Shown one piece after another: positions 3,011 through 31,940 of a stretch of 44,389 nt of DNA (positions are counted from its first letter, which is position 1; the number at the start of each line of letters is the position of its first letter). The notes below the pieces were generated by a model, which did not search any database, had not been told where the DNA came from, and saw only the letters and a program-made list of their open reading frames with translations. The translations under genes were made by a program, and so were the position numbers. The DNA comes from Thermoanaerobaculia bacterium (GTDB lineage: Bacteria > Acidobacteriota > Thermoanaerobaculia > Multivoradales > UBA5704), in the NCBI GenBank assembly GCA_030150965.1, contig JASLEW010000115.1, forward strand, positions 1 through 44,389, in the 5' to 3' direction.

Positions 3011-3111
3011 CCCATACTTCTATTCTTCTATGCATTGAATGTCAAGGCTTGACTTGATCGGCGGCGAGGGACTGGTAGGATCGTTCATACCTCCGTGACT
3101 CTCGTGGGCGG

Positions 3112-7308: not shown

Positions 7309-8544
7309 ATGAGCACGAGCGCGCCGCGCCGCACCCGCCAGGGCTTCGAGCGCCGCCTGCGGGCGCGCATCCTCGGCCCGTCGATCGAGGACCAGGTGGC
7401 CGAGGAGATCGAGCTGCACGTCGAGCTGCTGGCGCGGGAGCTGATGGAGGAAGGGATGAGCGAGGCACAGGCAAGGGCCGAGGCGGCCCAGCGCTTCCAC
7501 GACCGCGCCCAGGTGGAGGCCGCCTGCGCGGCCATCGCCCGCCGCAGCGAGCGGCGCTGGCGCTGGCGGATCTTCCTCGGCGAGCTGCGCGACGACATGC
7601 GCCAGGGCGTGCGGCAGCTGCTGCGCGCCCCCTCCTTCGCCGCCGTCGCCCTGCTCACCCTGGCCGCCGGGATCGGCGCCACCACCGCCATCTTCAGCGT
7701 CGTCGAGGGGGTCGTGCTGCGCCAGTTCCCCTTCGCCCATCCCGAGCGGGTGACGATCGTCTCGGAGCTGTGGAGGGAGGGCGACAGCGACTTCTCGGTG
7801 GGCAACTTCGCCGACCTGGAGGAGCCCGCCGCCCGCGGCTTCGCGGCGTTCGCGGCGCAGCGCTTCCTGCCGCTCAACCTGGCCGACGGCGACCATCCCG
7901 AGCGCTTGCTGGCGGCGCCGGTGTCGCACCGCTTCTTCGCCGTCTTCGGCGTCGAGCCCCGGCTCGGCCGCACCTTCACCGCGCGCGAGGACCGGCCCGG
8001 GGCGGAGCCGGTCGCGGTGCTCTCCGACGGGCTCTGGCGCGAGCGGCTCGGCGCCGACCCCGCCATCCTGCAGCGCTCGATCCACCTGTCGGGACGCGCC
8101 TACCGGGTGGTCGGCGTCATGCCGCCGGGCTTCGATCCCACCCTGTCGCACGAGGAGCTGTGGCTGCCGATCGCCTTCACCCCGGCGCAGCGCGCCCAGC
8201 ACGACGACCACTTCCTCGAGGTGGTGGGGCTGCTGCGGCCAGGGATCAGCCCGGCCGCGGCCCAGGCCGGGCTGACGCCGGCGATGCGGCGGGTGGCGCA
8301 GCTCCATCCCGAGGGCAACTCCACCCGCACCGGCGTGCACGTCGTGCCGCTGGCCGATAAGGTGATCGGTTCCTACCGCCAGCGCCTGCTCGTCCTCCTC
8401 GCGGCGGTCGGCCTGGTGCTGCTGATCGCCTGCGCCAACGTGGCGAGCCTGCTGCTCGCCCGCGGCTCGGGGCGGGCGCGCGAGCTGGCCATCCGCGCCG
8501 CGGTCGGCGCCGGCGCGGGGCGGATCGTGCGCCAGCTGACGTGA
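7309..8544 (+). CDS. ADOP/MacB-type FtsX permease, N-terminal portion (truncated)
   Basis: The order is an N-terminal helical prefix, TM1 (FAAVALLTLAAGIGATTAIF), and a MacB-like periplasmic domain. The first FtsX helix follows (LLVLLAAVGLVLLIACANVASLLLARG...RELAIRAAVGAG). The ORF stops immediately after that helix, and the remaining FtsX helices are missing. Confidence 0.75.
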   Translation: MSTSAPRRTRQGFERRLRARILGPSIEDQVAEEIELHVELLARELMEEGMSEAQARAEAAQRFHDRAQVEAACAAIARRSERRWRWRIFLGELRDDMRQGVRQLLRAPSFAAVALLTLAAGIGATTAIFSVVEGVVLRQFPFAHPERVTIVSELWREGDSDFSVGNFADLEEPAARGFAAFAAQRFLPLNLADGDHPERLLAAPVSHRFFAVFGVEPRLGRTFTAREDRPGAEPVAVLSDGLWRERLGADPAILQRSIHLSGRAYRVVGVMPPGFDPTLSHEELWLPIAFTPAQRAQHDDHFLEVVGLLRPGISPAAAQAGLTPAMRRVAQLHPEGNSTRTGVHVVPLADKVIGSYRQRLLVLLAAVGLVLLIACANVASLLLARGSGRARELAIRAAVGAGAGRIVRQLT

Positions 8545-9137
8545 CCCCGGAGTTCTACCTGCCGGTCGCCCAGGCGCCGCCCGAGGCCTGGACCTGGATC
8601 CAGCGCACCATGAGCCTGGTGGCGCGCGGCCGCGACCCGCGCCTCCTGGCCGGCGTGATGCGCGCCACGGTGCGCGGCCTCGATCCGTCGCTGCCGCTCA
8701 CCTTCAGCTCGCTCGGCGAGGCGCTGCGCGGCGCCACCGCGGAGGAGCGCTTCTACACCCTCCTGCTGTTCACCCTCGGCCTGCTCGGCCTGTTCCTGGC
8801 GGCGGTGGGCGTCTACGGCGTGATCGCCTACTTCGCCGGCCTGCGCACCCGCGAGATCGGCATCCGCATCGCCCTGGGCGCCAGCCGGCGCAGCGTCCTG
8901 GCCCTCATCGCCTGGCAGGGCGTGCCGCCGGTCGCGGGCGGCCTCGCCGCCGGCGCCGCCGGCGCCCTCGCCGCCACCCGCGGCCTCCAGGGCTCGCTCC
9001 ACGGCGTGAGCCCAACCGATCCGCTGACCTTCCTCTGCGTCATCCTGGTGCTCGCGGCGACCGCCGGCTGCGCCGTGCTCATCCCGGCCCTCGGCGCCAC
9101 CCGGGTCAATCCGCAGGAGGCGATCCTGCGGCCCTGA
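8541..9137 (+). CDS. ADOP/MacB-type FtsX permease, C-terminal portion
   Basis: It starts at a GTG that overlaps the upstream stop (GTGA) in a different frame. It encodes the end of a periplasmic domain plus a complete FtsX three-helix module (REIGIRIALGAS... LTFLCVILVLAATAGCAVLIPAL). Confidence 0.7.
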   Translation: MTPEFYLPVAQAPPEAWTWIQRTMSLVARGRDPRLLAGVMRATVRGLDPSLPLTFSSLGEALRGATAEERFYTLLLFTLGLLGLFLAAVGVYGVIAYFAGLRTREIGIRIALGASRRSVLALIAWQGVPPVAGGLAAGAAGALAATRGLQGSLHGVSPTDPLTFLCVILVLAATAGCAVLIPALGATRVNPQEAILRP

Positions 9138-10845
9138 GGGCGCCGGGCGGGCGGCGGCGCGCGGCCCTGGCGCGCGGCCTGGTTGGGTGCCGCGAATCGT
9201 CGATCCCGCGCCGCAGCATCTGGCCGGGCATGGCGGAGGTGAGCTGGCCGTGATCGAGCACCAGCTGCCCGTTGACCAGCACGTCGTCGATCCCGTCCGG
9301 CAGCAGCAGCGGGTGCTCGTAGGTGGCGCGGTCACGGATGCGCGCCGGATCGAAGATCACGATGTCGGCGTGGTAGCCCTCGCGCAGCAGACCGCGCCCT
9401 GCCAGGTGGAAGGTCTCAGCGCTCAAACCGGTGAGGCGGTGGATGGCCTGGGACCACGACAGCACCTCCTCCTCGACCACGAATCTCCTCAGGAAGCGCG
9501 GGAAGGTGCCGCAACCTCGGGGGTGCGGCAGGTAGGCCGTGTCCCGATAACGGATGGCGCTGTCGGAGCCCACCATGGTCCCCGGGTCGGCCGCGATGCG
9601 CTCCATGACCTCGCCGCAGATATTGTGATAGATCATCTGCGCCTCGCCGCCCGCGACCAGCTGATCCACGATACGCAGCTGCTGATCGAGCCCACGGGCC
9701 CCGAGCTCCAGGTCGGCGATCTGCGGCACCCGCAGGCCGCTCCACCGCGGGTGGCCGCCGGCCAGAGCGACGCGCGCAAAGCCGAAGTCCTGCCATCCCT
9801 GCGCCGCGAGGCCCGCCATCACCGCGGCTTCCAGCCGCCGCAGCTGGCGCGGATCACGCAGCAGCCGGCGGCGCTCCCCCCCTTCGGCGGCGAAGTACCA
9901 GTCGGGAAGGAGCGGATCGAGGTTGGTGCTGGACGCCGCGTAGGGATAGAAATCGTCCCCCACGATCAGGCCCTCGCGGCGGCCCGCCGCGATCAGCTCC
10001 TGGCGGCGCTGGAAGTCGCCGCAGGCGGCGGCGCCGGTACCGGTCACCTTGAGGTGCGAGATGAACAGCGGGATCCGCGCCTCCCGGCTCAGGCGCATCA
10101 CCTCCTCCAGGGCCGCCAGCCCCGCCGCGCCCTCGTCGCGGACGTGGCTCGCATGCAGGCCCCCGAACCGCGCCGCCTCGGCCAGCAGCGCCTCGATCTC
10201 CTCCGGCGGGCTGAGGCGCCCTGGCAGATACGCCAGACCGGTGGAGATCCCCAGCGCACCCTGGCGCATCGCCCGGGCGACCAGCTCCCGCATGCGGGCC
10301 AGCTGGGCCTTGGAGGGAGCGTCGTTGGCCCGCGCTCCCATCACGGCGCGCTTGACCGTGTTGTGACCGATCAGGGTGGCGACGTTGACGTTGACGCCGT
10401 AGCGGTCGATGAGGGAGGCGAGCTCGGCGGGGTGGAGCGGGGACCTGCCGCAATTGCCGGTGACGAGGGTGGTGACGCCCTGTCCCACGTAGTTCCAGGC
10501 GTTGATCGGCGCCTCGGCCGCCAGCACCGAGGCGTCGGCATGGGAATGGGTATCGATGAAGCCCGGGGCGGCGATACGGCTCCTGGCGTCAAGGAGCTGC
10601 CGGCTGTGAAACCAGCGCGGACCGCGCCAGATCGCCACGATGCGGTCCCGCCGCACACCGATGCTGACGTGGTAACGGGCCGGAGCGCCGCTGCCGTCCA
10701 CCAGCGTGGCATCGGTGATGACAAGATCATAGCTCGGCGCCCGCCCCAGCCCCAGGTGCACGGCCACGGCGATGCCGAGCGCCAGCGCCGCCGTAGCCGC
10801 CAGGGCCAGGTGCGGCCGGCGCCAGGGTGGCGGCAGGAGGCGCAT
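9106..10845 (-). CDS. N-acyl-D-amino-acid deacylase (D-aminoacylase, amidohydrolase superfamily), N-terminally anchored or secreted
   Basis: 579-aa ORF with PGFIDTHSHAD metal-binding and GVTTLVTGNCG motifs, and the DLVITDATLVDGSGAP start typical of D-aminoacylases. Its ATG is 3 nt downstream of the stop of the preceding gene. Confidence 0.85.
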   Translation of the reverse strand: MRLLPPPWRRPHLALAATAALALGIAVAVHLGLGRAPSYDLVITDATLVDGSGAPARYHVSIGVRRDRIVAIWRGPRWFHSRQLLDARSRIAAPGFIDTHSHADASVLAAEAPINAWNYVGQGVTTLVTGNCGRSPLHPAELASLIDRYGVNVNVATLIGHNTVKRAVMGARANDAPSKAQLARMRELVARAMRQGALGISTGLAYLPGRLSPPEEIEALLAEAARFGGLHASHVRDEGAAGLAALEEVMRLSREARIPLFISHLKVTGTGAAACGDFQRRQELIAAGRREGLIVGDDFYPYAASSTNLDPLLPDWYFAAEGGERRRLLRDPRQLRRLEAAVMAGLAAQGWQDFGFARVALAGGHPRWSGLRVPQIADLELGARGLDQQLRIVDQLVAGGEAQMIYHNICGEVMERIAADPGTMVGSDSAIRYRDTAYLPHPRGCGTFPRFLRRFVVEEEVLSWSQAIHRLTGLSAETFHLAGRGLLREGYHADIVIFDPARIRDRATYEHPLLLPDGIDDVLVNGQLVLDHGQLTSAMPGQMLRRGIDDSRHPTRPRARAARRRPPGALRAAGSPPAD

Positions 10846-10848
10846 CGC

Positions 10849-12438
10849 TCACCGCGGCCGGCGGAGGCCGTGCGCGCTGCCGCGCGTTCCCAGCTCCCGG
10901 ACGTACTCCTCGATCTTGCCGCGGACGGCGGGATCGGTCTCGTAGCGCAGGCACTGCTGGTAAGCCTGGATGGCATCCTGGTTGCGGTGCAACCGGACGT
11001 AGACACGGCCGAGCTCACGATAGAGGCTGGCCCGCCCGGGCTCGATGGCGATGGCCTGCCGCAGGTAGCCGAGGGCCTCCTGGGGCTGCTCGTCGCCGAC
11101 CAGCTTTGCCAGGTTCAGCAGCGGGAAGATGAACCTGGGGTCGGCGGCATGGGCCCGCTGGTAGAACTCCTTCGCCCGCTCGGTGCTGCGCAGCTCGGCG
11201 CCGCCGCGGACGTACACCTTGCCGATGCCGTTGAGCGCCAGCGGCCAGTCCGCATGCAGCGCCAGCGCCTGCTGATAGCCGTCGAGCGCCTCCCGGTAGC
11301 TGCCGCGGGCGAACGCCAGCTGGGCATTGCAGTAATCGAGGCGGGCCGTCAGCTCGCGGTCTGCCGGATCGGTCTTGGCAAGGAAGCCGTACATCGCCGC
11401 CAGCCGCGGCCAGTCGGTGTTCTCGTCCGACTCGCTGTAGAAGCGCTGCAGGAGCGCATCCGCCTGCGGCCTGAGGACGGCGGAGATCCGGCGGCCGAGG
11501 TCCCGCAGCTCGGTGGAGCCGGGTTCCGCCTGGGCGAGCTGGTTGTAGAGCTCGACCGCCGAGCTGCCCGAAGACGACAGGAGATCGCCGTGCCCGATCG
11601 CCTCCAGCGCCCGCCCGTAAGGTCCCTGGCCGCCCACCCAGCGGACGAGCAAGTAGATCAGCACGGCGGCGGCGACGGCCAGGACGAACAGGGTCCGGCC
11701 GCTCCTCCGCCGTGGCGCCGGAGCGGCCCCGGAAGGCGCGGCAGCCACCGGCGCTGGTTGTGCCTGGGGTGGGGCCGGAGCGGCAGCCGCCGGCGCTGTC
11801 GCCTGCGCTCGCCGCGAAGGAGCGCCGGCACGCGCCAGGGTGGCGGCGACCGGCGGGGAAAAAGGTGCAACCCGCGGAGTTGCCCTCGCCTCCCCTGCTT
11901 CCGGTCCCTGCGCCGTCCGCAAAGACGGCGGCGCGGCGGCGGGCAGGGCGGCCACCGGCGGATCTGCCGGCGTTGCCGGAGCCAGGGGGGCCAGCGAGAT
12001 CGGCGGAGTGGTCGGGGCGGGGGTCTCGCCACAGAACGGACAGGAGGCGCCACCTAACAGCACCTTGGTGTCGCCGCCGACGCCGCGGCAGGCGTGGCTG
12101 GGGCCGCTGGGGCCGCGCCGGCACCAGGCGCACGCCGGCTCGATGTCGGCCGGGGAGACGACGCCGCACGGGCAGGCGAAAAGCGTCCCCGGCATGATGT
12201 TGCAGTGCCGGCATTGCAGATCGGCAGGCACCTTCGCCCGCCAGGCCACGGGGTCGGGCTCACAGGAACACAGATACCAGCTGTAGTCCTCTCCCTCCTG
12301 GCGGGGGAAGGTCCCCAGGCACCCGCCACCGCTCACATCCATCACCACGCGCGAGCCGTCGACCTCGTAGACCTGGGTGCCCCCGGCATCGGGGAGGAAG
12401 AAGGCCAGGAAGCGCCGGGCCGCTGCCGTTGCGGGCAT
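10849..12438 (-). CDS. zinc-ribbon / Pro-Ala-rich linker / single TM / TPR-repeat protein
   Basis: The N-terminus has Cys knuckles (CSC...CRHC, CPC...CAWC, CPFC). A TM segment (TLFVLAVAAAVLIYLLV) is preceded by RRRSGR, and the C-terminus has TPR-like repeats (ALNGIGKVY..., AKEFYQRA..., ALGYLRQAIAIEP..., AIQAYQQCL). The ATG at 12438 follows GAGAGGA; a GTG at 12453 would overlap the upstream stop as GTGA. Confidence 0.7.
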   Translation of the reverse strand: MPATAAARRFLAFFLPDAGGTQVYEVDGSRVVMDVSGGGCLGTFPRQEGEDYSWYLCSCEPDPVAWRAKVPADLQCRHCNIMPGTLFACPCGVVSPADIEPACAWCRRGPSGPSHACRGVGGDTKVLLGGASCPFCGETPAPTTPPISLAPLAPATPADPPVAALPAAAPPSLRTAQGPEAGEARATPRVAPFSPPVAATLARAGAPSRRAQATAPAAAAPAPPQAQPAPVAAAPSGAAPAPRRRSGRTLFVLAVAAAVLIYLLVRWVGGQGPYGRALEAIGHGDLLSSSGSSAVELYNQLAQAEPGSTELRDLGRRISAVLRPQADALLQRFYSESDENTDWPRLAAMYGFLAKTDPADRELTARLDYCNAQLAFARGSYREALDGYQQALALHADWPLALNGIGKVYVRGGAELRSTERAKEFYQRAHAADPRFIFPLLNLAKLVGDEQPQEALGYLRQAIAIEPGRASLYRELGRVYVRLHRNQDAIQAYQQCLRYETDPAVRGKIEEYVRELGTRGSAHGLRRPR

Positions 12439-12449
12439 CGGAGATCCTC

Positions 12450-13778
12450 TCACCCAACCTGGAGGCGGCCCTTGGTGACCACCCGGTATCCCCTGCCCGA
12501 CTCCTCCAGGCAGGGATGCTGGAGCAGCGAGACGGGGCCGTAGTTCGCTCCGTCCACATAGAACAGTGGCTCGAAGATGAACAGGTGCTGGCGGAAATAG
12601 GGCTGGTCGATCGCCGGCAGTGCGCGCACCTCGCCGTTTGTGGGGTCCTTGAAGACGCGGAAGCCCGGCTGCGACGGCGCTGGCGCCTCCACCAGCAGAT
12701 CCACCATTTTGTCGAACCGCATCATCCGGCTCGCCGGCGGGGCGAGACGCTGGAGGTCGGCGACGAGGCCGAGGTAGCTGTTCGCCGCGGGCTGCGGCGC
12801 GACGGAGTCGTCATCGGGTCCTGGCGCCGGAAGCGGTTCGTATCCCACGCCGCCTGAGGAGTCGGGCGTGGCGCCGCCGGCGCCGGCCGGGGACCGCGGG
12901 GCAGTTTGAATCCTGCGGTCCGGCGTCTCCCCCGGCCCGGCGCCGCGCTCCTCACGAATGGACAACAGCCGCCGGACCTTCTGCTCGGTCTGGTCCTGGG
13001 CCGTCCTGGCAGAGGAGTCCAGCTGATTGAGCTGCTCCCACAGCTTCCCCAGCTCCACCTTCAGCGTCTGCTCGCAAAGAATCACCCTGGCGCGGAGGTC
13101 CTTCCTCTCGGTCTGGTCGAGGAACTCCTTGGTCACGGCGAGACCACCCAAGACCAGGCCGAACACCGCAACCACCAGCGGCAGATTCGGCACCACCGGC
13201 AGGTTCGGCCCCGGCGGGGGTGGGGGCGTACCCTGCCCGCGGTTCTCCGGCGCTGAATCAGTTCCGCCCGCCGTCCCCCCTCCCTGCTGTGCGCCCGGCG
13301 GTGGCGGCGGCGTCCCTTGCAGCTCACCTGCGATCTCGTCGCGTTTCCGCTGGATCCGCGTGTGGAGATCGTCATAGGCATCCAGCCCCGAGCTCGTCTT
13401 CAGCTTGTCGTAGCTCTGTTCGAGGTTCTGTTCGAGCTCTCCGAGCCGGTCATCGAGATCCTTCAAGACCTCGGGGCCGTGGCTCGGCGCATCCGCGGTG
13501 CACGACTTGAAGCCCTGGTCGAAGGGGAGCAGCAGCGTGCGATCGGGGCTCGGCTTGGGGAGCGCTTCCACGCGGTCCGTCGCCGCACCCGCACCGTTCC
13601 GCGCTGACGATGCGCCGGCCGCCGTGCCCTTCGAGCCCGGCGACCGGTTCCCCGTCCGGTGCGCGGACGCGCCCTTCGTCCCGCCTCCCTGCACCTCCAG
13701 GCACACGGCCGCGGAGGCCCACAGGCAGAGGGCGAGCACCGGCCATGCCGCGCCCGCCCGGAAGCGACTCCGTGCCAT
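12450..13778 (-). CDS. bitopic membrane protein with signal peptide, coiled-coil segments, Pro-rich spacers and an uncharacterised C-terminal domain
   Basis: The ATG at 13778 lies 7 nt after GGAGGG and 1 nt after the upstream stop. The signal peptide is MARSRFRAGAAWPVLALCLWASAAVC, with heptad-like regions on both sides of a TM segment (LPLVVAVFGLVLGGLAVT). I recognise no family match. Confidence 0.65.
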   Translation of the reverse strand: MARSRFRAGAAWPVLALCLWASAAVCLEVQGGGTKGASAHRTGNRSPGSKGTAAGASSARNGAGAATDRVEALPKPSPDRTLLLPFDQGFKSCTADAPSHGPEVLKDLDDRLGELEQNLEQSYDKLKTSSGLDAYDDLHTRIQRKRDEIAGELQGTPPPPPGAQQGGGTAGGTDSAPENRGQGTPPPPPGPNLPVVPNLPLVVAVFGLVLGGLAVTKEFLDQTERKDLRARVILCEQTLKVELGKLWEQLNQLDSSARTAQDQTEQKVRRLLSIREERGAGPGETPDRRIQTAPRSPAGAGGATPDSSGGVGYEPLPAPGPDDDSVAPQPAANSYLGLVADLQRLAPPASRMMRFDKMVDLLVEAPAPSQPGFRVFKDPTNGEVRALPAIDQPYFRQHLFIFEPLFYVDGANYGPVSLLQHPCLEESGRGYRVVTKGRLQVG

Positions 13779-13779
13779 G

Positions 13780-16700
13780 TCAACGCCCTCCACTCATCAT
13801 CTGGAGCAGGGTGTGCCGCACCTCGCGGTGGAGCAGCGGGTACTCCCAGATCGCCCGCACCAGACTGGTGGTGTCCGGCGTGTGCTCGGAAGAGGCGGTG
13901 CCGTAGACGTCGAGGGCCGTCCTGGCAATCTCGTGGAGCGCGCTGTTCCAGGCCTCCCAGCCCATCTTGTCGAGCATCCGGGCCGCCGGACCGGTGTAGC
14001 CGCCGGTCTTCATCAGGTCCAGGGCCTGGAGCTGCCGGGCCACGCTCTCGGGGCCGGGGACCGGCTGGAAGGTCGCGGGGTCGGGGCTGACCCGCGCCAC
14101 CTTGATCGTTTCGGACCCGTCGCCATGTCCGTTGGGCGAGAGCCGGCCGACCTCGCGCAGGATGAAATCGTCGACCTGCTCCTTGCCGACCGACGAGTAC
14201 CACGGCAGCACGATCCTCGGCTGCGGCCCGCCGTCGGCGCCGGTCTGCCCGTCCGGCAGCACCGCCAGGTCGAAGCCGACGATGCCGCAGGCCGAGCTGC
14301 CGCTACCGCCCGCACCCTCGATCAGGCCGCCGGCGGCGACCAGGTCCTTCGAGTACACGGCCTGGCCGTCGAGGACGTAGCTGACGATGTCGTCCATGAG
14401 CCGGACCTTGACCTCGTCGGCCTCGGGCAGGCGCGGCCGGCTCTCCGGCGGCCCCTGGCCCTCCATCGCCCGCTTGAGCTCGCGGTACAGAGCCTTCACC
14501 AGGGTGGTGATCCTGGCCGCCGACCGCGCCACCCCGGCGTGCGGCAGGAGGCCCCAGCCGTTGCCGGCCAGCACCACGTAGATCGCCGACGGCAGCGGGC
14601 GCCCCGGGATCGGGGCCACGGCGAGGAGCAGCCCGTGGGTCAGCACGAGATGGAACAGCGACCGCATCCAATGCCCGGGCGCATAGCGGTCGATCTTCGG
14701 CGCCACCTCCTCCGCCACCGTCGCCTCGCGCAGGTCGAGCGTCCGGATGTCCCGGTTCTTCATGTACGACGGGCTCTTGTCTGGCATCATCTCGCCGACC
14801 CGCAGGGTGTAGAACTGGCGCAGCTTGCCGATCACCGCGTCGTCGCGCAGGCAGGCCAGGTCGGGGAACCAGGCCGGCAGCCCGGTCATCGACTCGATGC
14901 TCTTCTTGAACGTCGCGTACTCCGCGTCGGACGAGATGTCCTGGAAGAAGCTGAACAGCCGGTTGCCGGCCAGCACCATGCTGTCCAGGAAGCAGAGCTG
15001 GTCGCCCGGATGGATGCCGCCACCGGCCGGGCGTGGGCCGCCGGCGAAGACCGCATAGTCGGCCGAGCCTCCCCCCATGTCGATGAGGACCACGCGATGA
15101 CTCTCCGGCAGGTACTCCTCCTTCTTCTCGCGGTGCGAGCGGTTGTAGGCCCGGAAAACCGCCTGGCTCTCGTCGACCATGGCAATGTTGGGGCCTTCTT
15201 TGGGGTTCACGCCGCCTGGGCAAGCGAGCTCCTCGACTACTTCGACCGCGCGGCGCGCTGCGTTCTCGTAGAGCCTGGCCTCGATCGGCTTCATGCTCAG
15301 CGGATAGGTGAAGGTGTAGTGCGACGGCAGCGCGCCGGTCTTGGCGAAGACCTCGGCGGCAACGTGCAGCAGCAGCAGCTCCAGGAACGCCATGCGGAAG
15401 GCGCGGCGCCGCAGGTCCTGCTCGGGGGAGTCGCCGGGCGACGCCCACTTGAGGTTGTCCTCGACACCCCAGGGGAGGAGCGTGGAGTCGCGGATATCCA
15501 GAGCCAGCTGGCCCTTGGTGCCCAGCAGGTCGAAGACCCCGACGAGCCCGGCCAGGTCGGCGGCGGTCTGGCCGCCGGGGTTGGCCAGTCCCTGGAGCAG
15601 CGGCAGATCGCGGGCGAGCGCCAGGCGGTAGCCGAGGAGCGTCGGGAAGAACCCGCGGTGGAAGCCGCTGTCGTCGCCGCCGGCCTCCAGGAACCAGCCG
15701 GGCTGGACAGCCTGCGGCAGCCGGCGCTCGGGGCGCGGCTGCACCAGCGGCCCCGCCCAGGGGCGCAGCTCCAGCACCCGCGGCTTGGTGGCGCCGTCTC
15801 CCCTCAGGGCCACGCTGGTGTTGCTGGTGCCGAAGTCGATGCCGGCCTGGAGCCGGCTCTGCTGCTCGGCGTCGCGGAAGACGGCGCCGCTGAGGAAGAG
15901 CAGGCCGGCCTGCTGGGGCTCCTCGGCGCCGGCTTGGCCGGTCTGAAGGACCTCGGCCAGGCGCGGTGGGCTGGTCAGCCGGGTGAAGGTGTAGGTGTCC
16001 TGGGCGTCGTGCGGCGCCGCCGCCACGGCGGGCTCGGCGACGCCGTCCTCGCCGTGGAAGCGCAGCGACAGCCGGCCGCTCGCCGCCAGCGTCCGCACGA
16101 AGTACGCCGACCAGCGCGGCTCCCGCACGGCGCGGAAGGTCGGCCAGACGTCCGCCTGCGGCAGCCTCATCTCGTCGAGCTTCCAACCGATCAGGCGGGT
16201 CTTCCAGCTCACCTGCCGCAGTGCATCGAAGTCGGTCCCCTTGGGCAGCGGCAGGGTGAGGCGGCAGAGCGCCTCGGTGGCGGCGTTGGCGCCGACGGCG
16301 CCGGAGGCAAGCCGGACCAGCTCCCCCGGGGCGGCGATGAATTGCGGGAACAGCCGCAGCAGGTTGCTGTGGAGCGGCAGCAGCGGCGTCACGTCGTCGC
16401 GCTTGGTGAGCGTGCGCCGCCAGTCGGCGTGCGCCTGGTGGAGCAGGGCGGGGTCGAGCGCGTTGGCGCCTTCCAGGTAGAACAGCGCCCCGCCGACGGC
16501 CCGCAACCGCGCCGGCGCCTGGGGGCTCAGCGACAGCACCTGATGATCGCTCGGCACCTGGTACACCTGGCGGTTGCGGCCCAGCACCTCGACCACCTGG
16601 TTCTCCGGGTCGATGCGCACCGTGAGGTCGCAGAGACGCGAGCGGTCCGCGGTGCCGGGGAAGGCCAGCCGCGTCGCCCAGGGGTTCAAGGCGACATCGA

Positions 16701-17646
16701 TGCCTTCGGCGATGAACAGCACCGGCGTCGCGCCGCCTCCGGCCCCCGGCGCCAGGGCACGCAGCGGATAGTTGCTCCAGACCTCGGACTGATCGAGGCC
16801 GTGATATCGGTAGCCGAGGAAGCTCCGGGGCTCGCTCGTCAGCCGTTCCTCGACGGCCCGCCCGGACGCGCCGTACTGCGTGGCCAGCACCGTGCGCAGC
16901 AGCTCGACCGCCTGGTACAGGTTGCCGAAGAGGCTCCCCTGCTGGCTCTCGGCCAGTTGCTCGGCGAGCCTGCCGAGAACGGAATCGAAGGCTTCGGCGA
17001 AACCCTCCTGCCGTCCATAGTGCTCCATCAGCTGCGACAACCGGAACGTCACCGCCGCCGCTCCGGGCACCTGGAACTTCTCCAAGCCGGGATCTGCATC
17101 CGGCGTCGGCGTCTCCAGCGCGGGAAACACGAGGCAGGGCCCGTAGCAGGCGCCGACGACCGCGCCCCCGGAGCCGGTGCGCAGCACGGTCAGCCCGCCT
17201 TCGCCGTGCAGGCGGTAGAGGACCGGCGGCCAGCGCGCCTCGTCAGGCTCGATCGGCAGGCCGGCGTGCAGCGCCGGGTAGAGGTCCTCGTCGAGCCGCT
17301 TGAGCGTCTCGGCCGGCACTCGGACGGCTTCCAGGTCCCCCTGGAAGAGGGCGGCGAGCAGGCCCGCCCACACCTGGAAGTGCTCGGCGTCGGTCCGCCG
17401 CGGTTTCTGGTCGATCTCGGCGGCCAGCGTCTCGAGGAAGGTCTCGGCGTGTGCCCAGATGGTCGGCTTGGCCTCGCGTGCAAGGCCGCGGAACGCCGCG
17501 TCCAGCGGATCGAACAACCGGCGTTCGCGGATCGCGGTATCGAACAGGGTGAAGGCCCTGGTCTCGCCGGCCCGTGTCGCCGCACCGATGCCGTGCCAAT
17601 GATCGCGGCCGAACTTGGGCAGGAGAAACTCCAGCTTGTTGGACAT
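13780..17646 (-). CDS. giant actin/Hsp70-fold (ASKHA) ATPase-like protein with ~600-aa uncharacterised N-terminal region
   Basis: 1288-aa ORF; the ATG follows GGAGGGAG. The phosphate-1 motif is GIDFGTSNTS (nt 15814..15843). The phosphate-2 motif is VVLIDMGGGSADYAVF (nt 15046..15087). An adenosine-like motif is YVVLAGNGWGLL, and the terminal motif SKDLVAAGGL resembles Hsp70 DEAVAxGAA. Confidence 0.8.
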   Translation of the reverse strand: MSNKLEFLLPKFGRDHWHGIGAATRAGETRAFTLFDTAIRERRLFDPLDAAFRGLAREAKPTIWAHAETFLETLAAEIDQKPRRTDAEHFQVWAGLLAALFQGDLEAVRVPAETLKRLDEDLYPALHAGLPIEPDEARWPPVLYRLHGEGGLTVLRTGSGGAVVGACYGPCLVFPALETPTPDADPGLEKFQVPGAAAVTFRLSQLMEHYGRQEGFAEAFDSVLGRLAEQLAESQQGSLFGNLYQAVELLRTVLATQYGASGRAVEERLTSEPRSFLGYRYHGLDQSEVWSNYPLRALAPGAGGGATPVLFIAEGIDVALNPWATRLAFPGTADRSRLCDLTVRIDPENQVVEVLGRNRQVYQVPSDHQVLSLSPQAPARLRAVGGALFYLEGANALDPALLHQAHADWRRTLTKRDDVTPLLPLHSNLLRLFPQFIAAPGELVRLASGAVGANAATEALCRLTLPLPKGTDFDALRQVSWKTRLIGWKLDEMRLPQADVWPTFRAVREPRWSAYFVRTLAASGRLSLRFHGEDGVAEPAVAAAPHDAQDTYTFTRLTSPPRLAEVLQTGQAGAEEPQQAGLLFLSGAVFRDAEQQSRLQAGIDFGTSNTSVALRGDGATKPRVLELRPWAGPLVQPRPERRLPQAVQPGWFLEAGGDDSGFHRGFFPTLLGYRLALARDLPLLQGLANPGGQTAADLAGLVGVFDLLGTKGQLALDIRDSTLLPWGVEDNLKWASPGDSPEQDLRRRAFRMAFLELLLLHVAAEVFAKTGALPSHYTFTYPLSMKPIEARLYENAARRAVEVVEELACPGGVNPKEGPNIAMVDESQAVFRAYNRSHREKKEEYLPESHRVVLIDMGGGSADYAVFAGGPRPAGGGIHPGDQLCFLDSMVLAGNRLFSFFQDISSDAEYATFKKSIESMTGLPAWFPDLACLRDDAVIGKLRQFYTLRVGEMMPDKSPSYMKNRDIRTLDLREATVAEEVAPKIDRYAPGHWMRSLFHLVLTHGLLLAVAPIPGRPLPSAIYVVLAGNGWGLLPHAGVARSAARITTLVKALYRELKRAMEGQGPPESRPRLPEADEVKVRLMDDIVSYVLDGQAVYSKDLVAAGGLIEGAGGSGSSACGIVGFDLAVLPDGQTGADGGPQPRIVLPWYSSVGKEQVDDFILREVGRLSPNGHGDGSETIKVARVSPDPATFQPVPGPESVARQLQALDLMKTGGYTGPAARMLDKMGWEAWNSALHEIARTALDVYGTASSEHTPDTTSLVRAIWEYPLLHREVRHTLLQMMSGGR

Positions 17647-17667
17647 GTCGTTGTGCTCCCTCCGTCT

Positions 17668-19491
17668 TCAGACGACGCCCTCTTTCACCGCGGTCAGGTG
17701 ATCGGCCATGTAGTTCCACAGCGACTGAAGATAGGCGATGCCCAGCGGGTGGTTGTCGGCGCGGTCCTCGGTCGAGACGCCGCGCAGGGCCTCGAGCCGC
17801 GAGGTGACGGGCACGTTCTTGCCGAGTGCCTCGGTGTCGACCCCCGCCAGGCGCCAGGCGGCGAACGCATAGGACGCCGGCGCCTTGTGCAGCAGGCCGC
17901 CGGTCTTGCCGAAACGGACCGGGTGGCGCAGCCAGTCGCGCATCAGCTGGGTGGTCTGCACCTGCTCCCAGCCGAGGGCGCGCGCGGTGTGGAGCAGCGC
18001 CTCGCCGATGTGGCGGGCGAGGGCGTTGAGGTCGTCGCGGAACTGCTCATAATGATCGGCGCTGACGAAGCGGTGCAGGGCCTGCAGCGTGTTGCGGGCG
18101 TTCTCGAACGACTGTCGCGTGGCGATGTAGGGCACCAGGCTGTAGGTCAGCCAGTTGAACCCGGCGAGCGCCGCGTAGAGCCAGCGGTCGGCGCTCACCG
18201 ACGGATCGAGCGCCAGGTCGGCCCAGCAGAGCGCGTCGCCCACGGCGCTGTCGTGGTGGTGCACGCCGAGCAGCTGTGTGCCGCTCTCCGGCGCCGCGGT
18301 CTTGGTGAAGAAATTGAGCGCCAGGCCCGCCGCCGCGAACTCCACGGCATGCAGGGGCGAGACCTGGTTGCGGCCGCCGTTGCACCAATGGATGCGCGGA
18401 CTGAAATGCGGATCGTTGGGATAGTCCGCCGGGTCCAGCTCCACCTCGCTGTAGCGGGTGGGATTGCGCAGACCGAGCACGTACAGCTCGTCGAACAGCT
18501 CCTGGCCGTGCTTCTGGTAGTAGTCCCAGCTCGCCACCGCTCGCCGCTCGATCTCCTCGGGCTTGGCATAGTAGCCACGCGCGATCTGCCGTATCTCGTC
18601 GGTCGAGAAGTCCTGCCCGAGGCCGGCAAGGCCGCGGCCGACATTGCGCGCCCGCACCCCCTCCAGGAAGTCCGCCTCGCTCTGGCCGCTCCGCCGCAGG
18701 AAGTCGTCGAGCGGCTCGGCGCCGTCTGGAAGCCACTGGTTCCCCCAGTCCAGCTCGCGCAGCGGCGGGGCCGGCGGGTAGAAATAGGGACCGAGCAGGC
18801 AGCCGGCGACCCGCCAGCTGTCGCGGTCGTGGTTGTCGTCGGCCACCTGGCGCACGATCTTCGAGATCACCGGGATCCCGGCCGCGCCGGTGCCGCCGTA
18901 CATGCTGCCGACCACGAAGACGCGCAGCCGCTTGCCGCGGAAGCCCTGCAGCAGGGCGACCAGCGGCGATTTCGCCTCCACCTTGAGCTCGCCCATGGAG
19001 GCGATGACCGCGGCGCCGATGAAGGGTTTCTGGAAGAAGCCGCGGTCGAGCGGCGTCGCGAGATCGGCCTCGCTGTAGAAGAGCCGCAGGATCTGCATGG
19101 CCTCGTTGTGCCCGGCCGGCCGGCTGGCCAGCTTGCCGGCCAGCGTTTCGACGCCGGGAGGCCCGGAGAGCGCGTCGAGCGGGTGGATCGTGACCAGGTC
19201 CTGGAGCTTGAGCGACCAGAGCCCGCGCGACGCCCCGTCGCCGCCGGTCTTGCCGATGGCGCGATAGCGGCTGACCGCCTCTTGCAGCGACGCGGAGCGG
19301 CAGGCCTTGTCGGGATCGATACGCACCAGGGTGAGGCTGTCGGCGGCGTTGGCCGCGGCATGACCGGCGGTGGGCTCCTGCGCCAGCAGCGGGATGCCCA
19401 GGCACAGCAGATCGATCAGCGCCTCGGCCACCTTGGCGCCGGTGCCGCCGACGGCGAAGACCACGTAGTTGGTGGCGGTGTCGTTGGCCAT
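17668..19491 (-). CDS. divergent tubulin/FtsZ-like GTPase
   Basis: The internal ATG at 19491 follows GGAGGG and overlaps the upstream stop (TGATG). The N-terminus reads NYVVFAVGGTGAKV. GFFQKPFIGA is T3-like. VFVVGSMYGGTGAAGIPVISKIV (nt 18877..18906 covers GSMYGGTGAAG) resembles the FtsZ T4 loop AGMGGGTGTGAAPVIA. The upstream 148 codons of the ORF are R/G/A/P-rich and overlap a better gene. Confidence 0.75.
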   Translation of the reverse strand: MANDTATNYVVFAVGGTGAKVAEALIDLLCLGIPLLAQEPTAGHAAANAADSLTLVRIDPDKACRSASLQEAVSRYRAIGKTGGDGASRGLWSLKLQDLVTIHPLDALSGPPGVETLAGKLASRPAGHNEAMQILRLFYSEADLATPLDRGFFQKPFIGAAVIASMGELKVEAKSPLVALLQGFRGKRLRVFVVGSMYGGTGAAGIPVISKIVRQVADDNHDRDSWRVAGCLLGPYFYPPAPPLRELDWGNQWLPDGAEPLDDFLRRSGQSEADFLEGVRARNVGRGLAGLGQDFSTDEIRQIARGYYAKPEEIERRAVASWDYYQKHGQELFDELYVLGLRNPTRYSEVELDPADYPNDPHFSPRIHWCNGGRNQVSPLHAVEFAAAGLALNFFTKTAAPESGTQLLGVHHHDSAVGDALCWADLALDPSVSADRWLYAALAGFNWLTYSLVPYIATRQSFENARNTLQALHRFVSADHYEQFRDDLNALARHIGEALLHTARALGWEQVQTTQLMRDWLRHPVRFGKTGGLLHKAPASYAFAAWRLAGVDTEALGKNVPVTSRLEALRGVSTEDRADNHPLGIAYLQSLWNYMADHLTAVKEGVV

Positions 19492-19970
19492 CAGCGTACC
19501 CTCCGCCACGGCATGTGCGTCAGGTGCGCCGGCAGGTGCAGGCCGAGGAAGACGGCGACGTAGATCACCGCGCCGCAGAGCAGCAACGACATCATGTTGG
19601 TGACGCCGATGAGCCGTGCCGAGTTGGGCTCCAGGAGATAGACGGCGCTCGCGTAGCAGGCGAGGAAGACGAACAGCCACAGCGCCAGGGCAAACCGCGA
19701 GCGCCGCGGGCCGTACGCCAGCTCGCGCGCCCCGTTGCTGCGGGCGACGCTTTCGCGCCAGAGCTTGAAGAGGAATGCCAAGATGGCCGCCACCACCGCC
19801 GCGAAGGTGATGGAGAGCGCACTGGAGACGGCGACCTGATGCGCCGCCGGATGGCCCTGGAACTCCGGCCGGATCAGGAAGTCGATCAGCCAGCGCAGCA
19901 CCGCACTGGACTCCGTCATCCTGGCGGGCTGCCACGCCAGGACCTCAAAGGCATCGATGATGGTGGTCAC
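19491..19970 (-). CDS. small polytopic membrane protein (3-4 TM)
   Basis: 159-aa ORF with a GTG start 6 nt after GGGAGGA. It has hydrophobic helices (VAVSSALSITFAAVVAAILAFLF, FALALWLFVFLACYASAVYLL, MMSLLLCGAVIYVAVFLGLHL). Its stop overlaps the start of the tubulin-like gene. Confidence 0.65.
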   Translation of the reverse strand: MTTIIDAFEVLAWQPARMTESSAVLRWLIDFLIRPEFQGHPAAHQVAVSSALSITFAAVVAAILAFLFKLWRESVARSNGARELAYGPRRSRFALALWLFVFLACYASAVYLLEPNSARLIGVTNMMSLLLCGAVIYVAVFLGLHLPAHLTHMPWRRVR

Positions 19971-20009: not shown

Positions 20010-21611
20010 TCAGACCTTGCTGGGCCAGATGACCAGGTACCAGGGCTTGAGCGTCTGCGCGGCGCTGCTGGAGTTGCGCAGCAACCCGGATACCAGGGCC
20101 TTCAGGTTCAGCAGCTGGTTCGCCGAGCCGGGTTTGGAATCGTCCTCCGTCGACCAGCTCTCGATCCACGCCGGCAGGCGCAGCCGCGCCGGATCGAAGC
20201 GCCCCTCGACCCGCAGCAGGGTGAGCGGCAGGTAGTCGCCGGACGGGGTCCAGCGCAGCACCAGGTGGCCGCCGGCTCCCGCCCCGGCCGCGCTCGGAGC
20301 AGTGGCCGGCGCGAAGGTCAGCGGTTCGCTCACCGTATCCGCCAGTGCCTCCTCGAATTGCAACCGTTTCAGCTGGTAGCCCGCGGGCGGCCAGGCGAGC
20401 GATTGGGCGCTCTCGTACCAGGCGCGGGGCCGCGCGACCTCGCGCACGGTGAAGCGCAGCTCGCTCGCCGCGTCCCTGGCGGCGCTGCCGAAGAAGGCGC
20501 GGCCGGCCTCGGTAAGCTCGATGTCGGCGGCGATATGGACCGCTCCCGGATGCAGGAAGTCGAGGTCCTGCCAGAGATACTGCAGCACCTGCACGTCCTG
20601 GCTGAGCGGGATGTCGTTGAAGTCGACGCGCCAGGTATCCTCGGTGGCCAGGCGCAGCGGGTTGGGCACCGGCGAGCCCCCGGCGACGGCGTCCTTGACC
20701 GCATAGGCCGCGGTGTCGAGCGCCGGCCGCGCGCGCTTGACCAGGGGGAGGGTCAGCGGCAGCTCCCGCACCAGCCGCGGATCGAGGCCGGCCTGCACGG
20801 CCTCGCGCAGCCGGTCCACCACCGGCTGCAGGTCCTCGCGGTTCTCGGTGAAGACGAGCAGCAGGAACGGCCGGTAGCGGGCGGGGTCGGCGGGATCGAC
20901 CGCGCGGTAGACGCCAGATTGGCCGCCGCCGCGCGTCTCGGAATAGACCGGGCCGGAGAAGCGGCTGCGGATGCCGAAGATGTGGACGCCCCAACCGCGG
21001 TCGATCAGGGCGGCGATCGCGGCATTGGCGCAGCGCGCGTCGGCGCCGGCGGCGCAGCGGGAATCGGCGACATCGAGCGGCAAGCTCTGCACGCCGTCGG
21101 TGACGAAGAGATCGACCGCGTTCGGCCGGTCCGCCGCGTGGGCCGCCGGCTGGGGGGCTTCGCCGAACGAGCGTATGGTCGCGGCGATGTCGCTCGCCGC
21201 CCCGTTGTAGAACCCGGCGGAGCGGGTCACGGTGAGCAGGGTGGGGGCGGCGGCCGGGGCCTGGCGCGCGGCGGCATCGACTCGCCGCAGCGTGAGCGGC
21301 TGCGCGGCATCCAGCTGATCCGCCATGGTCGCCACCGCCCGCAACGCGCGCGAGTACTCGAAGGAGCCTGCCGGGTCGGAGAAGCCCCGCATGCTGGCGC
21401 TCGCATCGATGTAAAGGACGGGAGCGCCGCGGCGCCGCGCGGGGCCGGCCGGCGAGCGGGTCCCCTCGGCGGTTTGGATCCAATCCGCCAGCGTGTGATG
21501 CCTGAACGTCGGATCGTCAGGCTGATGGATACAGCTGAAACATGCTGCCGCCGCCGCGGCGAGCGCTAGGGCCCCGACGCGGGCGCGATGTCGAAACGCT
21601 GGCAACGGCAT
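20010..21611 (-). CDS. von Willebrand factor A (vWA)-like domain protein, probable lipoprotein or secreted, with ~300-aa uncharacterised C-terminal region
   Basis: The signal is MPLPAFRHRARVGALALAAAAAAC. The MIDAS DxSxS motif is YIDASASM (nt 21390..21413), with a downstream LFVTDGVQS motif. The ATG follows GAGGAAGGG. Confidence 0.75.
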   Translation of the reverse strand: MPLPAFRHRARVGALALAAAAAACFSCIHQPDDPTFRHHTLADWIQTAEGTRSPAGPARRRGAPVLYIDASASMRGFSDPAGSFEYSRALRAVATMADQLDAAQPLTLRRVDAAARQAPAAAPTLLTVTRSAGFYNGAASDIAATIRSFGEAPQPAAHAADRPNAVDLFVTDGVQSLPLDVADSRCAAGADARCANAAIAALIDRGWGVHIFGIRSRFSGPVYSETRGGGQSGVYRAVDPADPARYRPFLLLVFTENREDLQPVVDRLREAVQAGLDPRLVRELPLTLPLVKRARPALDTAAYAVKDAVAGGSPVPNPLRLATEDTWRVDFNDIPLSQDVQVLQYLWQDLDFLHPGAVHIAADIELTEAGRAFFGSAARDAASELRFTVREVARPRAWYESAQSLAWPPAGYQLKRLQFEEALADTVSEPLTFAPATAPSAAGAGAGGHLVLRWTPSGDYLPLTLLRVEGRFDPARLRLPAWIESWSTEDDSKPGSANQLLNLKALVSGLLRNSSSAAQTLKPWYLVIWPSKV

Positions 21612-21736: not shown

Positions 21737-22309
21737 ATGCCCACCGCGCCGCGCGACGTGACGGTCCTCCTCAGGGAATGGAGCGAGGGCGATCCCGCGG
21801 CCCTCGAAGGGCTCATGCCGCTGGTCCTCGACGACCTGCGGCAGCTGGCGCGCCGGCAGTTCCGCGGCGAGCGCTCGGCGCACACCCTGCAGCCGACCGC
21901 GCTGATCAACGAGGTCTACCTGCGCCTCTACGGCCAGCAGAAGCTGCATTGGGACAACCGGGGGCAGTTCTTCGCCTTCGCCGCCACCCTCATGCGCCGC
22001 GTCCTGGTCGATCACGCCAAGGCCCGGCTGGCGGCCAAGCGCGGCAGGGGAGTGCCCAACCTGCCCCTGGACGAGGCGCTCGCCGTGCCCGCCGGCACGG
22101 ACCGCGGCGTCGACTACATCGCCCTCGACGAGGCGCTGAGCCGCCTCTCCGCGCTCGACGGCCGGCAGGGCCAGATCGTCGAGCTGCGCTTCTTCGTCGG
22201 CCTGACCAACGAGGAGATCGCCGAGCAGCTCGGCATCTCGGTGTCCTCGGTCAAGCGGGACTGGGACCTGGCCCGCACCTGGCTGTTCCGGGAGCTGAAG
22301 CGGCCGTAG
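21737..22309 (+). CDS. ECF-type RNA polymerase sigma factor (kinase-associated ECF family)
   Basis: The N-terminus reads DVTVLLREWSEGDPAALEGLMPLVLDDLRQLARRQF. The region-4 HTH is LTNEEIAEQLGISVSSVKRDWDLARTWL. Both are typical of the ECF family encoded next to Ser/Thr kinases. Confidence 0.9.
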   Translation: MPTAPRDVTVLLREWSEGDPAALEGLMPLVLDDLRQLARRQFRGERSAHTLQPTALINEVYLRLYGQQKLHWDNRGQFFAFAATLMRRVLVDHAKARLAAKRGRGVPNLPLDEALAVPAGTDRGVDYIALDEALSRLSALDGRQGQIVELRFFVGLTNEEIAEQLGISVSSVKRDWDLARTWLFRELKRP

Positions 22310-22419
22310 GCGGCGGCGCCGGGGCGCGAGCCCGCGGCGGCGGATTCGTCGCGTCGGAAGGAGAAGGCGGGGCGGGGAAGGGCCTCGGCCAGCCGCGGAC
22401 GGGGCGATGCGAGGTGACT

Positions 22420-24882
<2,463 letters not shown>

Positions 24883-25805: not shown

Positions 25806-25921
25806 CCAGGGCGCGGCCGGAGCGGCCGGCAGGACCGGCCATTGTTAAGCGCTCCACGTTCTGATGCATCGAGCCCTGTTGTCTTGTCGAGCTTCGTTTC
25901 GCGCTCTGTTGTCAAGCTCTT

Positions 25922-25955
25922 GCGATCCGGCCGCAAGGCGTGGCGGCCGGATCGC
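25922..25955 (+). terminator. strong hairpin downstream of the 25020..25805 gene
   Basis: A perfect 13-bp stem (GCGATCCGGCCGC at 25922..25934 pairing with GCGGCCGGATCGC at 25943..25955) closes an 8-nt loop. There is no clear T-tract. An AT-rich island follows. Confidence 0.4.
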
Positions 25956-26012
25956 CGATCTTCATCTGCGGGAACGTGCGTGTTAATATCACTGTTATTG
26001 TTTACGTTTGAA

Positions 26013-31762: not shown

Positions 31763-31940
31763 CGCCATCTCCTCCTGGTCCAGAACTGGCCCGGTGCCTG
31801 TGCGGCCGAGCTTAGCGCAGCCGGTCCCGCACGGAGCAGCGGCCGCGGGGGCCGCGGCTTCGCTTGTGTTCTCGCACAAGCTGTGCGACGATCCTTGCTC
31901 CCCAAACCGCAGCCCTCTTGCGCGGAAACCGGAGGAATCT

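Follow-up and report, generated by a model that had tools for sequence, protein, structure and literature searches.

The question raised by this locus is what a very large unannotated protein, which appears to carry an ATPase core behind some 600 residues of no recognisable kind, does for the bacterium that encodes it, and with which partners. The protein is encoded at 13780..17646 on the reverse strand of a 44,389 nucleotide (nt) contig (JASLEW010000115.1) assigned to a Thermoanaerobaculia bacterium; the whole contig was analysed and is called the window here. An earlier reading, made from the sequence alone (the sequence-only reading), had placed the C-terminal half of the protein in the ASKHA superfamily of actin- and Hsp70-type ATPases, and our analysis supports that interpretation in large part. 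We find in addition that the gene is strictly coupled to one for a divergent tubulin-like protein, as judged from the gene neighbourhoods compared, and that the two are fused in some lineages. The pair is embedded in a tightly packed operon of seven genes, whose other five products are all predicted to be membrane or exported proteins.

A genuine gene and a new family

The window has a GC content of about 73% (70-77%), at which long spurious open reading frames (ORFs) are frequent. The ORF at 13780..17646 is judged to be a genuine gene because its GC content by codon position (0.72/0.49/0.93) is a coding signature, because a Shine-Dalgarno sequence, GGAGGGAG, lies 9 nt 5′ of its ATG, and because the N-terminus of the product, MxxxxEFLLPKF, is kept in six homologues. 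Codon-position GC and the homologues argue against a spurious high-GC frame. A 2021 amino acid (aa) ORF on the forward strand (13498..19563), antisense to three operon genes, was rejected as a high-GC mirror-frame artefact, with codon-position values of 0.91/0.49/0.73. The gene and the parts of its product are as follows.

13780..17646, reverse strand, giant ASKHA protein gene, 1288 aa, stop codon at 13780..13782, unannotated
15862..17646, reverse strand, N-terminal region, residues 1-595, family-specific, no recognisable relatives
14317..15855, reverse strand, ASKHA (Hsp70/MreB-like) ATPase core, residues ~598-1110, with large insertions at ~620-775 and ~900-1020
13783..14316, reverse strand, C-terminal extension, residues 1111-1288 (~180 residues), family-specific, kept in close relatives

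No segment of transmembrane strength appears in the hydropathy profile of the 1288-aa protein, and the protein alone gave no match in Pfam, NCBIfam, PADLOC or the PDB sequences. When 5.8 billion proteins were searched, only six relatives were recovered, all of ~1290 aa, unnamed, and alignable over their full length at 44-53% identity, giving a close family of seven. An exhaustive HMMER search with a profile of the C-terminal half of these seven then identified 164 related cluster representatives at E ≤ 1e-3. The two-part architecture is the family norm, because 110 of 155 family proteins share a length of 1000-1300 aa and a layout in which the ASKHA part starts near residue 500-600.

Among 185,579 GTDB species-representative genomes a single match was found, in a metagenome-assembled genome (MAG) of the Thermoanaerobaculaceae (locus L001), in a scan limited by the two peptide patterns used. 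An alignment of 40 sequences returned only the same seven proteins in a word-indexed search, and a metagenome scan with this alignment, run on generic ASKHA patterns, confirmed no locus. Searches by tblastn with the window protein and a relative from IMG/VR found nothing in GenBank phage records and nothing in plasmids except one 1.77-Mb Prevotella replicon. Every family member that carries a name is called 'hypothetical protein', in agreement with the earlier view that proteins of this type are poorly characterised. This is a new family inside a known superfamily, and no source names any of its members. Its founder, the product of the 1288-aa gene, is probably a soluble cytoplasmic ATPase, as predicted from its sequence.

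The C-terminal half carries a conserved ASKHA core

All four canonical ASKHA motifs are present in the C-terminal half in the expected order, as had been claimed. They are listed here with two further residues that correspond to functional positions of Hsp70.

15814..15843, reverse strand, phosphate-1 loop GIDFGTSNTS, residues 602-611; D604, G606 and T610 invariant
15448..15450, reverse strand, K733 in the NLKW motif, an invariant Lys whose equivalence to Hsp70 K70 is suggested by position
15169..15171, reverse strand, E826 in the DESQA motif, invariant, counterpart of the Glu in Hsp70 NEPTAA (DnaK E171)
15046..15093, reverse strand, phosphate-2 loop VVLIDMGGGSADYAVF, residues 852-867; D856, G858 and G859 invariant
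14545..14580, reverse strand, adenosine-type motif YVVLAGNGWGLL, residues 1023-1034; G1028 invariant
14323..14349, reverse strand, closing motif K1100-DLVAAGGL; K1100 invariant, G1106 almost invariant

The phosphate-1 loop lies exactly where the sequence-only reading had put it, and its core, DFGTSNT (residues 604-610), has the DxGxxxx form of the superfamily. The phosphate-2 loop also begins at the position first reported (15046); the end given for it, 15087, fell six bases short. Within that loop DMGGGSAD occupies residues 856-863, the Gly motif of the adenosine site is LAGNGWG, and DLVAAGGL itself spans residues 1101-1108 (14323..14346).

When the window was translated in all six frames, generalised patterns for phosphate-1 and phosphate-2 had one occurrence each, both of them in this ORF and correctly ordered; 200 codon shuffles give an expectation of 0.005 for each. 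Both motifs are invariant in the close homologues and in 40 distant relatives, which share 15-34% identity with the window protein. The alignment of the 40 contains 12 invariant residues: D604, G606, T610, K733, P782, E826, D856, G858, G859, S889, G1028 and K1100. The phosphate-1 loop aligns with GIDLGTTNS of mortalin, a match that is not significant alone (close-family profile against the PDB, Hsp70 match E 3).

A profile built from the seven close sequences reached only motif-level matches by hhalign (DnaK 41%, FtsA 57%), and the 40-sequence profile was therefore needed. This wider profile matched Escherichia coli DnaK at 96.4% (E 1.3e-9, covering DnaK 134-238), MreB at 95.0% and FtsA at 90.3%. 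In these alignments the phosphate-2 loop is paired with DLGGGTFD of DnaK, DIGGGTMD of FtsA and DIGGGTTE of MreB, and DnaK 167-176 is aligned to the region of E826. Residues D604, K733, E826 and D856 correspond to D8, K70, E171 and D194 of DnaK, E826 and D856 through hhalign and K733 putatively by position; together with the GGG of phosphate-2 they make up the invariant catalytic set. The motifs of the family and of E. coli DnaK compare as follows.

DFGTSNT in the family, DLGTTNS in DnaK
invariant Lys of NLKW in the family, K70 position in DnaK (a putative pairing)
FTYPLSM in the family, ITVPAYF in DnaK
DESQA in the family, NEPTAA in DnaK
DMGGGSAD in the family, DLGGGTFD in DnaK
LAGNGWG in the family, adenosine Gly motif in DnaK
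KDLVAAGG in the family, closing helix in DnaK

The commonest Pfam match among the 40 relatives is MreB_Mbl, found in 23 (best E 4.2e-8), and a few match FtsA, Ppx-GppA or EutA. None matches HSP70 (PF00012) at E ≤ 0.01, and the window protein matches neither HSP70 nor MreB_Mbl at E ≤ 0.1. In eight relatives checked individually the Pfam matches were partial and under the cut-offs, the best being MreB_Mbl at 25.8 bits against a cut-off of 27.

Residues 570-1288 were modelled with AlphaFold2 from the seven sequences. The model is of low confidence, with a mean predicted local distance difference test (pLDDT) score of 49 and a predicted template modelling (pTM) score of 0.50, yet its order of strands and helices is consistent with a duplicated ASKHA lobe. 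Compared with the PDB by Foldseek, the model gave 190 matches at E ≤ 0.001; the 50 matches listed range from E 1.4e-7 to 2.3e-5 (probability 1.0), and every one of them is an Hsp70 nucleotide-binding domain, with template modelling (TM) scores to the target of up to 0.46. Profiles and model together place residues ~598-1110, as a predicted ASKHA core, in the Hsp70/MreB/FtsA branch and nearest to the nucleotide-binding domain of Hsp70. The core is complete in the sense first proposed and is interrupted by two large insertions; that large insertions separate the motifs had been noticed in the sequence-only reading. The alignments show that the predicted active site is conserved.

The regions flanking the core are specific to the family

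The N-terminal ~600 residues had been said to match nothing recognisable, and this holds at the level of sequence and of fold. Eleven residues of this region (P61, W64, F174, P175, P294, P424, W481, P502, W512, P561 and G581) are invariant in 19 sequences drawn from the narrow and wide family. An AlphaFold2 model based on the same 19 sequences has a pLDDT of 64 and is confident for residues ~60-385. Foldseek found nothing significant for it in the PDB (best E 0.17, immunoglobulin/FN3-like fragments) or in BFVD (best E 0.04).

The C-terminal extension gave no significant PDB match with the close-family profile, and no beta-sandwich is confidently modelled in it (low-confidence AlphaFold2 model). 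It is not an Hsp70 substrate-binding domain, and the earlier statement that the protein has none is borne out.

A tubulin-like protein is the constant partner

The gene directly upstream of the giant ATPase gene encodes the second protein of the pair.

17668..19491, reverse strand, divergent tubulin/FtsZ-like gene, 607 aa, with T1-like GGTGAK and T4-like GGTGAAG loops

Its start at 19491 is set by homologues and a Shine-Dalgarno sequence, and its ATG overlaps the TGA of the gene for a 159-aa membrane protein. A longer reading of 755 aa (17668..19935) was discarded as over-extended, its 5′ part covering the 159-aa gene in another frame. Against Pfam the 607-aa protein scores 22.6 bits with Tubulin_2 (cut-off 27) and 16.5 bits with Tubulin, both sub-threshold.

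The window and all the loci examined (L001/L003, L002, L008/L009, L010/L011, L012, L015, the P0172 locus, L006/L007 and the Prevotella locus L017) have a tubulin-like gene directly upstream of the ATPase gene. Moreover, all six family members longer than 1600 aa among the cluster representatives carry an N-terminal tubulin-like domain fused to the ATPase. An end-to-end alignment pairs the 607-aa protein with the first ~565 aa of two of these fused proteins, P0023 and P0040, and in L013 the fused gene fills the exact slot of the two separate genes. At least two divergent sub-lineages have such fusions. Together with the adjacency of the two genes wherever a locus was examined, they are strong genomic evidence that the tubulin-like protein and the ATPase act together. 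The sequence-only reading had brought in the tubulin-like neighbour merely as an addition to an ATPase assay; it proves to be the defining partner of the family. In L001 the tubulin-like gene was called as two pieces, 8175..9242 and 9343..9990 (355 and 215 aa), which may reflect a frameshift, an assembly error or a genuine split.

The pair lies in a conserved operon

The seven genes of the operon are all on the reverse strand, with gaps of -14 to +39 nt. In the order of transcription they encode a lipoprotein, a protein with three transmembrane (TM) helices, the tubulin-like protein, the giant ATPase, a membrane protein, a TPR protein and an amidohydrolase. The five partners of the pair are as follows.

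20010..21611, reverse strand, predicted lipoprotein, 533 aa, first gene of the operon, with vWA-like metal-site motifs YIDASASM and VTDGV
19491..19970, reverse strand, small membrane protein, 159 aa, with three hydrophobic helices
12450..13793, reverse strand, membrane protein, 447 aa, with an N-terminal hydrophobic segment, Pro-rich linkers and a second segment near residues 196-225
10849..12453, reverse strand, Cys-rich/TM/TPR protein, 534 aa, with a zinc-ribbon-like N-terminus, one TM helix and matches to Pfam TPR families
9106..10845, reverse strand, amidohydrolase (Amidohydro_3, Pfam E 5.5e-25), 579 aa, with an N-terminal signal or anchor, last gene of the operon

Six orthologues share the Cys after the signal sequence of the lipoprotein and its DxSx[SP] and TDG motifs. 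In NCBIfam the 579-aa protein resembles a generic amidohydrolase, below the cut-off.

The order lipoprotein, small TM protein, tubulin-like protein, giant ATPase and ~400-500-aa protein recurs in L001, L002, L008/L009 (Pyrinomonadaceae), L010/L011, L012, L015 and the P0172 locus, with ATPases as little as ~20% identical to the window protein. A gene of ~125-160 aa occupies the slot of the 159-aa gene in all related loci, and one of ~400-505 aa directly follows the giant gene in every locus. A TPR gene comes next in most loci with the recurring order (it is conserved in L002, L008, L010, L015 and the P0172 locus), and the amidohydrolase gene is conserved in L002, L010, L015 and the P0172 locus.

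More distant relatives, on two IMG/VR contigs and the Prevotella replicon, keep the two-gene core. The two IMG/VR contigs, which are classed as viral, each carry a 465-aa tubulin-like gene followed by a 1044-aa ASKHA-containing gene (L006 5067..9602 and L007 4662..9197); in L006 the pair is followed by genes for a coiled-coil protein and a DUF4357 protein. The cultured human oral Prevotella sp. oral taxon 299 F0039 (NC_022111.1, L017, the 1.77-Mb replicon) carries the pair at 4268..5881 and 5912..9388 of L017, corresponding to ~623.6-628.8 kb of the replicon, and hhalign relates its tubulin-like protein at 98.4% and its ATPase core at 99.5%. The PLSDB table lists no gene in this stretch.

In five related loci, though not in the window, the operon adjoins genes for caspase-like CHAT proteins that also carry TPR, STAND or FGE-sulfatase domains. 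These CHAT-type neighbours are located as follows.

L002, 20882..23218
L008, 1..2884
L012, 766..4386
L015, 16307..18226
P0172 locus

Relation to known cytoskeletal pairs

One comparison is with FtsA and FtsZ, where an ASKHA-fold ATPase is likewise encoded beside a tubulin-superfamily gene, amid genes for membrane proteins and cell-envelope enzymes; the FtsA profile match was noted above. Here, in contrast, the gene order is reversed, with the tubulin-like gene leading, the two proteins are very divergent and of far greater size, fusions occur, the window protein has no Pfam FtsA or SHS2 match, and there is no dcw-cluster context. MreB and Mbl resemble the family in profile, in the Pfam matches of the relatives and in an MreB-like S..AG motif after phosphate-2, whereas the window protein is three to four times larger, has no MreB_Mbl match itself, and belongs with relatives whose checked matches are partial.

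A second comparison is with the FtsZl1/FtsZl2 proteins and the FtsZl1-vWA 'membrane remodelling' operons defined by Makarova and Koonin (2010; PMC2875224). Those operons, too, combine a divergent Tubulin_2-type protein with a vWA-type protein and many membrane proteins, the two assignments resting here on sub-threshold and motif evidence respectively. They differ in carrying a P-loop GTPase and OmpA proteins, absent here, and in that FtsZl1 is ~1000-1190 aa long with a coiled coil, as against 607 aa. Additional file 5 of that paper lists a run of genes in M. magneticum, amb2957-amb2961, in which FtsZl1 and three vWA genes precede a 1626-aa protein labelled DnaK (HSP70), a link that is left undiscussed there. 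Going by that label, the run may be an older example of a tubulin-like protein tied to a giant Hsp70-like one. Searches of full-text literature, in a scope that leaves out most subscription journals, turned up no account of the tubulin-like/giant ASKHA pair.

A proposed role at the cell envelope, and its rivals

We favour, with a probability of roughly 0.6, the reading that the giant protein represents a family of ASKHA ATPases coupled to a tubulin-like partner and acting, with the membrane and exported products of the operon, on the cell envelope. Like FtsA and FtsZ, the ATPase and the tubulin-like protein would be joined in one complex at the cytoplasmic side of the membrane. Closure of the ASKHA clamp, driven by ATP, would control or anchor the assembly of the tubulin-like protein, which would depend on GTP; the control might also run the other way. 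The N-terminal region may be a docking platform for the partner or for the membrane proteins, and these would relay the state of the pair to a periplasmic module of lipoprotein, TPR protein and amidohydrolase that acts on the envelope. A bolder form of the proposal, which we put forward tentatively and which stands a somewhat better chance of failing than of holding, is that the tubulin-superfamily GTPase and the Hsp70/actin-fold ATPase make up a single two-nucleotide machine, sometimes in one polypeptide. Such a machine would constitute an unrecognised class of prokaryotic cytoskeleton-like or membrane-associated assembly, spread over Acidobacteriota, Bacteroidota and other bacteria, with its own ~600-residue adaptor domain and dedicated membrane and periplasmic partners.

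Several observations weigh against the envelope reading. By itself the window protein has no significant match in any library searched, and its ASKHA assignment depends on the family profile and on a model with a mean pLDDT of 49 and TM-scores of at most 0.46. The tubulin-like assignment is sub-threshold in Pfam, with a PDB profile match that is not significant (E 0.38), and the vWA assignment of the 533-aa lipoprotein is at motif level, with no Pfam match and no PDB profile match. The functional analogy with FtsA and FtsZ is drawn from gene adjacency and fusion, and the CHAT, STAND and FGE-sulfatase genes near several loci would suit a conflict system equally well.

The principal rival differs over the biological role of the pair, conflict in place of envelope remodelling, and not over the molecular mechanism. 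It holds that the pair is the nucleoside triphosphate-dependent assembly or effector module of an anti-invader or programmed-death system, with the amidohydrolase and the CHAT proteases as effectors. The model for it is the set of GTPase-centred conflict systems with tubulin or HSP70 components, predicted to form multimeric assemblies, that were described by Kaur et al. (2020; PMC7159879). These resemble the present loci in combining tubulin- and HSP70-family proteins with vWA, TPR and zinc-ribbon parts and in having CHAT and FGE-sulfatase-type domains nearby. In L002, L008/L009, L012, L015 and the P0172 locus the operon has TPR-CHAT, CHAT-FGE-sulfatase or CHAT-STAND genes as neighbours, L001 has HicAB close by, and distant pairs occur on IMG/VR contigs, beside DUF4357. 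The distribution of the family also looks patchy and rare, with seven close-family proteins and one GTDB genome in the pattern-limited scan. We nevertheless regard this role as rather unlikely. The seven operon products and those of the two divergent genes next to them have no Walker A motif; the DO-GTPase that defines the systems is therefore lacking, and membership of the DO-GTPase systems was rejected, no search for GAP1 having been made. In those systems, moreover, tubulin and HSP70 are alternative, non-overlapping themes, and the HSP70 is canonical and accompanied by GrpE or DnaJ, whereas here the two are obligate partners; theirs are found in Firmicutes and Actinobacteria, the present pair in Acidobacteriota and Bacteroidota. 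PADLOC-DB 2.0 returned no match for five operon proteins at E ≤ 0.1, the seven-gene set stays constant across relatives of ~20% identity and is not tied to variable effectors, and the Prevotella replicon is the one exception to the absence of homologues from phage records and plasmids.

The other alternatives concern the ATPase itself. It could be a chaperone or unfoldase of the Hsp70 type, with the N-terminal region standing in for the substrate-binding domain, that folds, holds or assembles the tubulin-like protein or the exported products without building a structural assembly with them. Hsp70 nucleotide-binding domains (DnaK, mortalin, BiP, Ssz1) are indeed its nearest neighbours in sequence and fold, with the best profile match and all the Foldseek matches listed. 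The motif order DxGTxNx, Lys, xTxPxxF, [ND]ExxA, DxGGGxxD, adenosine Gly and closing Gly-rich helix is shared, and the Hsp70-specific Lys (K70 position), the Pro of TYPLSM (TVPAYF in DnaK) and the Glu of DESQA are kept. Such a function is improbable all the same, given that the protein lacks a Pfam HSP70 match, a substrate-binding domain and a lid, and that neither DnaJ nor GrpE is among the operon products with Pfam matches; the partner is a tubulin-like protein instead, and its fusion to the ATPase suits a stoichiometric partner better than a client. The two insertions, each of more than 100 residues, the ~595-residue N-terminal region and the ~180-residue C-terminal extension also set the family apart from Hsp70. 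These very large insertions in the core, the extreme divergence and the lack of a direct Pfam match might suggest a scaffold that is derived from an ASKHA protein and no longer hydrolyses ATP, an outcome to which loss of the phosphate-loop Asp and Gly residues would have pointed, as the sequence-only reading remarked. These residues and the Hsp70-type Lys and Glu are instead invariant in the 40 relatives, the pattern expected under selection for catalysis at such low identity, and because the whole catalytic set is retained, a pseudo-ATPase is very unlikely. Least credible is membership of the SrfB virulence-factor family, to which the sequence-only reading had seen a loose resemblance. SrfB proteins are large bacterial proteins of similar size, and one of the 40 relatives matches PF07520 weakly and below threshold (E 1.2e-3). 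The window protein (at E ≤ 0.1) and the other 39 relatives do not match, no srfA- or srfC-like neighbours occur among the operon products, and the assignment was rejected.

The two great families of cytomotive proteins are the tubulin-like and the actin-fold proteins, whose best-known cooperation in bacteria is that of FtsZ with FtsA. The present pair brings the two folds together a second time, independently and in very divergent form, in an ASKHA family of at least 164 clusters and sometimes within one chain. The partnership is previously undescribed; the N-terminal region of the ATPase is novel, and the membrane and periplasmic partners form a fixed set. Should the two proteins build a nucleotide-driven assembly, they would represent a bacterial machine of a new type, whether cytoskeletal, envelope-remodelling or immune, and a natural system in which to study how an ATP clamp and a GTP polymer cycle are coupled. 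Because a cultured oral Prevotella has the pair, the question can be approached by experiment.

Genes beside the operon

Two genes diverge from the operon upstream of the lipoprotein gene.

21737..22309, forward strand, ECF sigma factor (Sigma70_ECF E 1.8e-52, TIGR02999 203 bits)
~22400..24882, forward strand, Ser/Thr kinase-TPR protein (Pkinase and TPR), after the sigma factor

A sigma factor and a large TPR protein also stand beside the operon in L002 (b847, the homologue of w1090) and in L012 (TPR-CHAT). The arrangement suggests that the ECF sigma factor and the kinase-TPR protein are candidate dedicated regulators of the operon; a scan of the operon for promoters and terminators gave results at chance level.

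Farther along, a 456-aa protein with no family match (25842..27212, forward strand) has a syntenic counterpart of 397 aa in L002 (59% identity); either the conserved neighbourhood extends past the operon or the two organisms are simply related. The regions 944..6495 and 28508..31879 of the window hold unrelated neighbours, namely a BNR/sortilin-repeat protein, a 1127-aa Reg_prop/Y_Y_Y/GGDEF sensor and a 1123-aa cytochrome with P460 and c-type motifs.

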